From NCBI RefSeq assembly GCF_024223415.1, contig NZ_CP100500.1: a DNA stretch of 64,000 bases, one strand, 5' to 3'. Position 1 is the first letter of the stretch; each line of letters opens with the position of its first letter. Position numbers: made by a program. This stretch comes from Escherichia coli (GTDB lineage Bacteria > Pseudomonadota > Gammaproteobacteria > Enterobacterales > Enterobacteriaceae). Shown one piece after another: positions 18,801 through 21,800 of the stretch.

Positions 18801-21800
18801 TGCCCGTGGCGCTGTAGCCGTATTCCCGCGTCTGCCGGGGGGCGCTGATGCGCACCAGGTCGCCGTTGTCACTCCACCCGTAGTCACGGTCATATACCAG
18901 GCTGTTCAGGTGCTGGCTCTGTAACCGGCCTGCGGGGGTGTATGTGTTGGTCAGTTCATATGCGGCATTACTGCCTGCCATGCTGCCGAAGCTGCGCACC
19001 GTCTCCCGGTGCAGGCGGTCGCGCGTGAACTCCAGCAGCGGCGTCCCGCCCAGCTTCATTCCCGCCAGGTAACCGCTGCCATACGTCAGCCACTCCACCG
19101 GCGGCAGGCTGTCCGGCGTGACGCGGTTTGCCAGCCCCTGTTCGTTGTATGCGTGTTTCGTCTCATGCTGCCACAGCAGTTCCCCCGTCTCCGGGTTCTC
19201 CACCGTCTGGCGTTCGCCGGTCAGGCGGCCCTTATCGTCGTAGCCGTAGTGGGCAGCGACACGGTGGCCTTCACTGAGATGGCTGATGTCTGTCAGCCAG
19301 CCGTGGCCGTCATACTGCCACTGCTCTGCCGGTTCACCGTTTACCGTGCGGTGAGTGATACAGTCCGATTCATCGTAGTACCAGAGGGTGACAAGCCCCT
19401 CATCTTCACTCTGCGTGAGTTTTCCTGTCAGGTCATAATGATAACGCAGCGTCCGCCCGTCAAAGCCGCCCTGCTGTACCAGGCGGTCCAGCGCATCGTA
19501 ACTGAAATCACTGTGGCTGCCGTTCTCGTTAGTCAGACTGATGACACGTCCGGCAACATCGTACTCCATACTGCGCGTCAGCCCGCCCTGCGTGGTGCTG
19601 ACCGCCTTTCCCCACGCATCGTACTGTGTCTCGCTCCGGTTGCCGTCCGGGGTGATAACGGCAGTCAGGTCGCCTGCGGCGTTGTACTCATACCGCGTTT
19701 CATGGCCCTGTGCGTCTTTCACCGAGATTAACCGGCCACGGTTGTCATAGCGGCGGTAAAGGCTGATGCCTTCCTCGCGGTGGACCGCCGTCATCTGGCC
19801 GAAGCGGTCGTATTCATAGCGGGTCTGGTAGCCCGAGCAGTCGGTGAACGCCAGCAACTGACCGTAGCGGCTCCAGGTCATCTGCCGGGTGCTGCCCGTC
19901 GCATCTGTTGTCGTGGCCGGTAATTCACTGTGCGGATTATCATAAGCATGCCGGATGACGTCCCCGCTGCGCGATGTCTCCGATACCAGCCTGCCCGGTT
20001 CATCATATGCCCGGCGGCTCTCCAGCCCGTCCGGGGACACCACCGCCGTCAGCTGGTTCCCGTCGTTATAGTAAAATTTCGTCTCCCGCCCGTCCGGTGT
20101 GGTGATGTCCGTGATATCGCCGGACACCACATTCAGACCGTACTCTGTCCGCCGTCCCGCCGCGTCCGTCTGCGCCGTGAGCCTTCCTGCCGCGTCATAC
20201 CCGCTGTGCGTGACGCTGCCGTCCGCCAGTTCTTTTTTCACCACCCGCTTCAGCCCGGCCCCGCCTTCTGTATGCAGCACCTCACGCCGGTTCAGGCTAT
20301 CCGTGACGGTGATGCGGTCCTGCTCATACTGGTAGCGGTAACTCAGGCCTGCCGGGTTCAGCTGCTCCACCACCCGCCCGGTATCGTCGTAGCGGTAGCG
20401 CATCTCCGGCCTTCCCGCATAACGGTGCCCCACCATCCGGCCCGGGTGCTGCGCGTCATACGTGAAAGCGCGCACCTGCGTATTGCTGCGGTCATATACC
20501 GCCAGCAGTTCACCGGCTTCCGTATACGTGTACCGCACCAGTGGCGCACCGGGCAGGCTCTCCGGGTATGCCGGATCGTGCATCAGCCACACCGCCGAAA
20601 GGCGGATGCCCCTGTCGGGGCCGTATTCGGTACCGGGCAGTGTGTCGGGGAACGCTGAGGCTGAGAGAGGGCGGGAACGGTCAGAAGAAGATAGCGAAGA
20701 GGTGCGGGCCTCTTCCGCACGCTGCGCCTGCGTGGTCAGCACCAGACGGAACTCCCGCCCGGCACCGTCCGTCACGCCGGTGATTCCCCCGGCCAGGTCA
20801 CCGGCGGCCTCACGCCGGTGATTCCCCCGGCCAGGTCACCGGCGGCCTCACGCCGGTACGTCAGCGTCCGCCCGAAGCGGTCCGCCATCCCGGTAAGCAC
20901 CCGGTACGGCGGCAGCGGCGCTGGCAGTACGTCCTCAGCACCCGGCACCCGCTCAGACCACCCCAGTATCCACCACGGCCCCTGTGCGCTGTTGGTCGCC
21001 AGGTAAAGATGCGGGCTTAACCGGATATCCGGCGGCAGCGACGCCCACAGCCGTGCCAGCGTATGGCCGTCCGGCTGTGCTGCCTTACCACCGCGCACCA
21101 GCCACAGGGACTCGCTGCGGCTGTACACCGCCTCACCCGGCAGCAGCGGCTCAAAGTGAATGCTCCGTCCGCCGTTGTCGTTGAGTACCAGTGCATCATC
21201 GCGTAGCTGTAAGCGGATATCAGAAGGCGCTTTCCAGCCGGGGCCAAAAATCCCCACCGGTGCAGGCGTCTTCGTCCGGTAGCTGCTGTAGGTGCGGGAG
21301 AGAATGAACGGCAGCGGGCCGGGCAGCGCAAGGTCCGTCTCGCCGGGCAGCACCTTCGCCCCCAGCAGCGGATTTACCGGGTTGCCCGAAGTCATCCCGC
21401 CCGGACACACCGAGCACGCCACGCCAGTTGGCGCGCCAATTCTTACACCTGCCGAACCCTGGACAATGGGACCGCCATACTGAGTCATATCTCCCTGACG
21501 CGCCGCTGGTTTTCCGCTCATATAAAGTGCCCTTTTAGTTATTGTTCATATCCCTGTGTTAGTAACAAAAAAATAAAATGACACACAAGACCAGCTAATG
21601 TATTTATATATTTTTCACATAAACTTATTTGTTCTCAATCAACAACAACTGTTATTACAGGTCACTTTCAATATTTTATTAAACTAAAATTTTTAGCACA
21701 GATGAATTCATCATCAACAAATTCACTATATGGATAATATCCATTCAACGCATATGATTTATGATTTTATTAGTCTGAGTTATTTTTGTAGGGCTATATT

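Follow-up and report, generated by a model that had tools for sequence, protein, structure and literature searches.

The stretch of Escherichia coli DNA considered here, a window of 64,000 nucleotides from contig NZ_CP100500.1 (assembly GCF_024223415.1), carries mnmH, ylbG, a small gene, rhs, ybbP, ybbA and tesA in this order, which identifies the place of the rhs gene as the rhsD locus. By its domains this gene is an Rhs polymorphic toxin gene encoding an RHS element core protein. No single reading frame runs through it; a perfect tandem duplication of 38 bp splits it into an N-terminal open reading frame (ORF) of 249 aa and a C-terminal ORF of 1164 aa, the two sizes that had been given in the original prediction on this locus (Table 1). 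The evidence assembled below makes it probable that the duplication is a recent, strain-private product of slippage between short direct repeats, that such duplications recur at this site and that the gene is inactivated by it.

The tandem repeat occupies positions 20772-20857 and is perfect, its 86 bp being made up of two units of 38 bp and a further 10 bp. Tandem Repeats Finder run on the window reports the same interval with period 38, 2.3 copies, 100% matches and a score of 172. Read from the second base of the interval, the 38-mer CACGCCGGTGATTCCCCCGGCCAGGTCACCGGCGGCCT is found at 20773-20810 and again at 20811-20848, as had been claimed. At an offset of 38 the sequence matches itself over 48 consecutive bases (20772-20819), so that the repeat amounts to 2 x 38 + 10 bp, with TCACGCCGGT as a flanking microhomology of 10 bp instead of the 9 bp first proposed. 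In 100 dinucleotide-preserving shuffles of the window the 38-bp unit found zero matches. The unit contains a 9-bp inverted repeat, the second arm of which is also able to pair with the next copy of the direct repeat; the centroid fold of the unit is this 9-bp stem, with z = -1.1 and -1.3 relative to shuffled controls. A further copy of the 10-bp sequence lies at 20282-20291, 490 bp from the duplicated pair in the same rhs gene, and is present in K-12 rhsD as well. Altogether the window holds four copies of it where 0.19 are expected.

Table 1. Features of the rhs locus in the 64,000-nt window.
Feature	Position	Strand	Basis
rhs gene at the rhsD locus (RHS element core protein with predicted C-terminal toxin), broken by the +38 frameshift	17281..21521	-	ORFs, NCBIfam, structure alignments
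N-terminal ORF, 249 aa (public protein SRA07768.1); DUF6531, weak PAAR-like motif	20772..21521	-	ORF call, Pfam
C-terminal ORF, 1164 aa, native Rhs frame; YD shell, Rhs-associated core, DPLGL motif, toxin tip of ~140 aa	17281..20775	-	ORF call, NCBIfam, Pfam
Perfect tandem repeat	copy 1 20772-20809; copy 2 20810-20847		Tandem Repeats Finder and self-match
Third copy of the 10-bp direct repeat TCACGCCGGT	20848-20857		closes the tandem repeat
9-bp inverted repeat within the 38-bp unit (CGCCGGTGA at 20775-20783, TCACCGGCG at 20798-20806; 14-nt loop)	20775..20806		folding
Putative cognate immunity gene, YbbD family (163 aa in KV7), here split into 86 aa + 65 aa	16810..17300	-	NCBIfam, KV7 comparison

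Residues 1-235 of the 249-aa ORF are native and its final 14 residues, beginning with GV, come from a shifted frame, the Rhs frame being lost after residue 235 because 38 is not a multiple of 3. In silico removal of one 38-mer yields a single open frame of 1408 codons, or 1400 aa from the ATG. Over residues 1-1258 this repaired protein matches the NCBIfam model RHS_core (NF041261) with 2721 bits against a cut-off of 2000, in agreement with the earlier assignment to the rhs polymorphic toxin genes. The YD repeat model TIGR01643 matches in four stretches, the Rhs-associated core model TIGR03696 at residues 1181-1258 and the Pfam family RHS with E = 1e-15. About 140 variable residues follow a motif of the PxxxxDPxGL type (DPLGL). 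For this toxin tip the Pfam search returned no family; SAA and OCRE alone were matched, weakly and implausibly, and both were dropped as identities. The N-terminal ORF matches DUF6531 (E = 7e-19) and, weakly, PAAR_motif (E = 0.078 and 0.74). The repaired protein also aligns to solved T6SS (type VI secretion system) effectors, namely Tse5 (8cp6, E = 9e-120) and RhsA (7q97, E = 9e-84), and over the solved Rhs shells, Tse15 (8uy4) included, E values range from 9e-120 to 7e-59. These shell alignments set in near residue 290-313, and the break at residue 235/236 falls between the delivery end and the shell region.

The closest genome, that of strain KV7, is collinear with window positions 1890-61689 (59.8 kb); what distinguishes the two are 14 substitutions, a pair of 1-bp indels and the 38-bp duplication. 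In KV7 the locus is single-copy and contains TCACGCCGGT twice at a spacing of 38 bp, and K-12 rhsD, also single-copy, has the same paired 10-bp repeats 38 bp apart. The ends of the tandem copies in the window coincide with this pair, and the ancestral allele has one copy with two 10-bp direct repeats spaced by 38 bp. Within the rhs gene the duplication is the sole difference between the window and KV7, and once repaired, the protein of the window agrees with the KV7 Rhs protein at 1400 of 1400 aa. The 249-aa product SRA07768.1 is found on one public contig only (UDHK01000008.1, assembly GCA_900482235.1). Since the duplication is the only lesion of the rhs frame and is private to the isolate, it is probably recent, as had been supposed from the identity of its copies. 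The comparison with the rhs locus of related genomes, which the original prediction had proposed as a check, thus found a single copy at an otherwise nearly identical locus.

The same duplication recurs in other strains. A junction-centred 60-nt probe was used to scan 5426 complete genomes and matched 2568 of them, the match being contiguous in two, UTME-12 and VL40. Both strains carry the duplication at the same site, as exactly 2 x 38 + 10 bp and perfect, and in both the Prokaryotic Genome Annotation Pipeline (PGAP) annotates a frameshifted rhsD. The units of UTME-12 and VL40 differ from that of the window by one and two substitutions, respectively, in both copies of the respective strain, and therefore each strain duplicated its own allele. 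Their nearest relatives are single-copy and 100% identical over 6 kb of flank: for VL40 this is the O121 strain 201805972 and for UTME-12 it is UTME-9, a sister isolate from the same study that differs at the repeat site. In the UTME lineage rhs was already dead before the duplication arose (IS481 insertion, C-terminus missing); VL40 has no lesion besides the duplication and keeps an intact immunity gene, ybbC.

A predictive test gave further instances. Duplication of the K-12 rhsD unit in silico produces a 249-aa protein that is indeed known, as OJP03918.1, from six assemblies; each of these, the complete genome CP024266.1 and a metagenome scaffold among them, bears the duplication in its DNA. 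In CP024266.1 (L009, 156-2571) the adjoining ybbP is split into ORFs of 730 aa and 71 aa. The VL40-type product was found in one further assembly, GCA_016855365.1, whose contig ends inside the second copy. Two K-12-type haplotypes have 100% identical single-copy counterparts, in K-12 laboratory strains and in PEC1009. In total, ten assemblies (this window and nine others that are public) have the duplication, and for five haplotypes, including that of the window, a single-copy counterpart is identical or near-identical apart from it. The allele-specific units and the single-copy counterparts show that the duplication has recurred independently. In each of the nine instances that are complete the repeat has exactly two copies plus 10 bp, the tenth being cut by the contig end; triplications would go undetected by protein look-up, as their N-terminal ORF is the same as that of a duplication. 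For the vgrG-linked paralogue, the predicted duplication products were absent from the protein collection searched.

The reciprocal product expected of direct-repeat slippage, a deletion of 38 bp, exists as well. Its junction constructed in silico (CACCGTCCGTCACGCCGGTACGTCAGCG, as against AGGTCACCGGCGGCCTCACGCCGGTGATT for the duplication) matched five of the 5426 complete genomes (BE311, F41, K99S, EC24.26 and 88-3493). In all five the deletion sits in the vgrG-linked rhs beside yncH/ydcD, which is annotated as frameshifted, and ORFs of 1408 and 1405 codons are obtained when the 38 bp are put back. The deletion is present on two lineages or alleles that are 3-7% divergent in their flanks, and draft assemblies beyond these five genomes have it too. 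The predicted deletion products of the K-12-type, O121-type and KV7/window-type alleles likewise exist among public proteins, an example being VDZ04858.1 on three contigs. As a control, the in silico deletion and duplication junctions of four repeat pairs of the rhs gene were combined in one query against the complete genomes. Deletions were found at all four pairs (95 bp in two genomes, 63 bp in six, 38 bp in five and 24 bp in two), duplications at the 38-bp pair only, in two genomes. The other deleting pairs (24, 63 and 95 bp) are 10-11-bp direct repeats of the rhs core in complete E. coli genomes, and each genome with the 63-bp deletion has it at two places, suggestive of spread from one paralogue to another.

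Slippage between short direct repeats is well known from the classical deletion and duplication hotspots of lacI and from E. coli assays with engineered tandem repeats. Here the two TCACGCCGGT repeats 38 bp apart, within the conserved N-terminal portion of the rhsD core, would have become misaligned, through slipped-strand mispairing in replication or repair synthesis or through an equivalent RecA-independent misaligned exchange. The nascent strand would re-pair with the upstream repeat, and the 38 bp would be copied twice; backward slippage would give the +38 allele and forward slippage the -38 allele. Translation would then leave the Rhs frame after residue 235 and reach a stop 14 codons on, cutting the PAAR/DUF6531 delivery end off from the YD shell and the toxin, so that the gene would become a pseudogene, one that the same mechanism should be able to revert. 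The 9-bp hairpin in the unit might stabilise the slipped state. Both kinds of product are visible in genome collections because loss of rhs is tolerated, and since the UTME gene was dead before it was duplicated, selection is unnecessary as an explanation. An origin by slippage or unequal exchange, already part of the original prediction, is thereby strongly supported by the repeats of the single-copy relatives, by the recurrence and by the reciprocal deletion.

Several observations weigh against a recurrent slippage origin and have to be set beside this evidence. Direct repeats of at least 10 bp within 100 bp are common, with 29 in the window, and therefore repeat length alone fails to explain the recurrence at this site. 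The hairpin of the unit is no more stable than shuffled controls; a hairpin-driven hotspot was set aside on account of these ordinary folding energies and is kept as a mere possibility. Exact scans with the junction 29-mer gave zero matches in the metagenome contigs of the Joint Genome Institute (JGI) and zero among the GTDB species representatives. The six K-12-type assemblies show 0-6 differences over 3 kb, and some of them could share a single event. In the present assembly the duplication is known from the assembled sequence only, and two of the four eight-base homopolymers of KV7 appear here with 1-bp contractions that may be sequencing errors; contractions of this kind are, however, an error type unable to create a 38-bp duplication. 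The idea of a uniquely hot site was rejected, given the 29 comparable repeats in the window and the deletion alleles at three other pairs. The site is rather one of several slippage-prone repeat pairs in a loss-tolerant gene family.

One of the two contractions affects the gene next to rhs. In KV7 this gene, whose putative role is that of the cognate immunity gene, matches NF011298 with 379 bits and overlaps the 3' end of rhs. Its split in the window is due to a contraction from A8 to A7 at 17055-17061, seen by comparison with KV7 and the 16 further complete genomes closest to it, and the K-12 pseudogene ybbD has the same A7 state. For truncated YbbD, NCBIfam has a model of its own, NF011297 (86 aa). 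If the lesion is real, the whole module could be decaying, or the toxin could have been lost under selection exerted by the loss of immunity; alternatively, the eight-base homopolymer may have been misread in sequencing. The other contraction, from T8 to T7 at 36666-36672, lies in a gene for a type I secretion permease/ATPase (34514-36675, minus strand) and puts its native ATG (36675) out of frame, the long ORF starting from a GTG at 36655. Together, the two contracted runs among four eight-base homopolymers point to sequencing errors in homopolymers or to genuine slippage. The toxin tip and immunity gene of the window (17281-17700 and 16810-17300) correspond to the orphan module ylbH-ybbD of K-12, which there lies downstream of rhsD-ybbC (L006, 7011-8168). 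K-12 has Rhs pseudogenes and orphan modules (rhsE, ylbH, ybbD), and the C-terminal displacement of Rhs toxins has been described (PMC3150448). The fusion of the ylbH-ybbD module to a full-length core in the present lineage is an example of such displacement. Between the immunity gene and ylbG, a 34-aa ORF (MPQYGGPIVQGSAGV...; 16306-16410, minus strand) is what remains of an rhs N-terminus, listed as an incomplete hypothetical protein in both the KV7 and the K-12 annotation.

The alternatives to slippage with tolerated loss differ in what they would make of these data. An assembly or finishing artefact, in which a truly single-copy isolate acquired its duplicate at a contig join or gap fill, is distinctly unlikely. 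It would accommodate the perfect copies, the restriction of the 249-aa product to one public contig, the homopolymer contractions as possible errors and the fact that another duplication-bearing contig, that of GCA_016855365.1, terminates within the second copy. The boundaries, however, fall exactly on the pre-existing 10-bp direct repeat, unlike those of a random unmerged overlap, and 10 bp would be below the k-mer length of assemblers. Moreover, the identical event is seen in nine other assemblies from different laboratories, the complete genomes UTME-12, VL40 and CP024266.1 among them, the sister isolates UTME-12 and UTME-9 differ at the site, and the reciprocal deletion exists. The independent recurrence makes the artefact unlikely, which the original prediction had offered as one of two options. 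Selection for loss of function, by which a duplication of slippage origin would have persisted owing to an advantage of inactivating the toxin, such as might follow a loss of immunity, is unlikely too. The A8-to-A7 change in a gene that is intact in KV7 and the other 16 closest complete genomes would be in keeping with it, as would the numerous truncated RhsD N-terminal fragments in public collections, although most of those listed are marked partial because they lie at contig ends. Yet the immunity lesion, situated in an eight-base homopolymer, may be a sequencing error, and either of the immunity and rhs lesions may have come first; VL40 has the duplication as its only lesion with ybbC intact, and the UTME-12 gene was dead beforehand.

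The other option of the original prediction, a reversible on/off switch, finds no support as an evolved function. It would mean that the repeat pair has been kept since +38 turns the toxin off and precise loss of one unit turns it on again, and it must be regarded as highly improbable. From what is known of tandem-repeat deletion in E. coli, loss of a 38-bp tandem duplication with 48 bp of homology should be far more frequent than its formation, and this high expected reversion would suit a switch. Several duplicated haplotypes have close relatives with a single copy, which fits gain or reversion alike. In a contingency locus both states would be common among close relatives, whereas two of the 5426 complete genomes (2568 of them matched by the probe) carry the duplication. 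A multi-unit tract of variable copy number would also be expected, and the normal state here is one copy, with exactly two and never more in the nine full-length instances. The irreversible deletion is at least as frequent (five genomes), other direct-repeat pairs of the gene behave alike, the UTME-12 duplication arose in an already dead gene, and in the window switching the toxin on would be harmful if the immunity lesion is real. That the split gene still functions, either as two re-associating pieces made by translational coupling or as a toxin expressed from internal promoters, is extremely improbable. The TGA of the 249-aa ORF overlaps the GTG of the 1164-aa ORF (GTGA) with a Shine-Dalgarno-like GGGGGA 9 nt upstream, re-initiation at this overlap is conceivable, and the break lies upstream of the region that aligns to the solved shells (from about residue 290); in Salmonella, internal promoters do express Rhs toxins (PMC7043789). 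The overlap, on the other hand, is a by-product of the frameshift that is absent from the VL40 allele, where the N-terminal ORF stops at 242 aa, PGAP calls the equivalent genes frameshifted pseudogenes, the immunity gene is broken here, and expression of the pieces is a supposition drawn from sequence. Taken as one proposal, a mutational toggle that silences toxin delivery heritably but is lost again at high frequency, or a two-piece Rhs made through the GTGA overlap is very unlikely; if true, it would allow lineages to disarm an Rhs toxin transiently without losing the gene.

The remainder of the window has some features of its own. A 6925-aa ORF at 36679-57456 (minus strand), related to the SiiEA/BapA adhesins, is intact here, and the annotation of KV7 lists its counterpart as a pseudogene that has an internal stop; genes of a type I secretion system and a TolC-family gene adjoin it, and its long internal repeats share about 72-76% identity. 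At the left end (1-1950) an island with a tyrosine integrase (492-1742, minus strand) abuts allE in place of the allD/allC of KV7. The ATG of allE is lost at the island junction (A at window position 1895, T in KV7), leaving an ORF from a GTG at 1954, and strains AR_0085 and TUM1886 share this junction. At the right end (61690-64000) an element with a phage-type integrase (61759-62802, minus strand) and an RstR-like repressor (62842-63141, minus strand) forms an insertion, by comparison with KV7, between glsA and copA, its junction being found in five complete genomes, mostly from chicken isolates. The window has no tRNA gene.

As a mutation, the duplication is ordinary. Literature searches on tandem duplication or frameshift of rhsD, on "38 bp" and on short tandem duplications returned nothing on this event or site, so that it adds an undescribed case to a familiar type of mutation and reveals no new biological system. 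Its interest lies in a predictable site of the E. coli rhs core that misaligns repeatedly in nature and in both directions, where duplication and deletion alleles constructed in silico correctly foretold proteins present in public databases. Where rhsD or rhsE is called frameshifted and bears this signature, the call should be taken for a real pseudogene rather than an error, and the junction 29-mer can be used as a marker. The site also lends itself, as a natural substrate, to measurements of how duplication and deletion balance at a 10-bp repeat.

Among known systems, the slippage hotspots of the lacI type are a close parallel, with a perfect head-to-tail duplication at a pre-existing short repeat, a reciprocal deletion and occurrence in independent backgrounds; the difference is that duplications were seen at just one of the four rhs repeat pairs tested. 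With the contingency loci based on simple sequence repeats, the rhs site shares a change in repeat number that shifts the frame of a surface or competition factor and is reversible in principle, whereas here one copy with a 10-bp repeat is the norm, two copies are rare, higher numbers are unseen and the irreversible deletion is equally common. The repaired protein resembles the PAAR-Rhs effectors of the T6SS in its YD shells, Rhs-associated core and DPxGL cleavage motif; it differs from them in that no vgrG adjoins the gene, PAAR is matched weakly (E = 0.078), no Pfam family is assigned to the toxin tip and the gene is disrupted. The Rhs pseudogenes and orphans of K-12, finally, share with the window the locus, the family, the ylbH-ybbD module and the A7 frameshift, but the lesion described here is a small N-terminal tandem duplication rather than a displacement, an insertion sequence (IS) insertion or a truncation.

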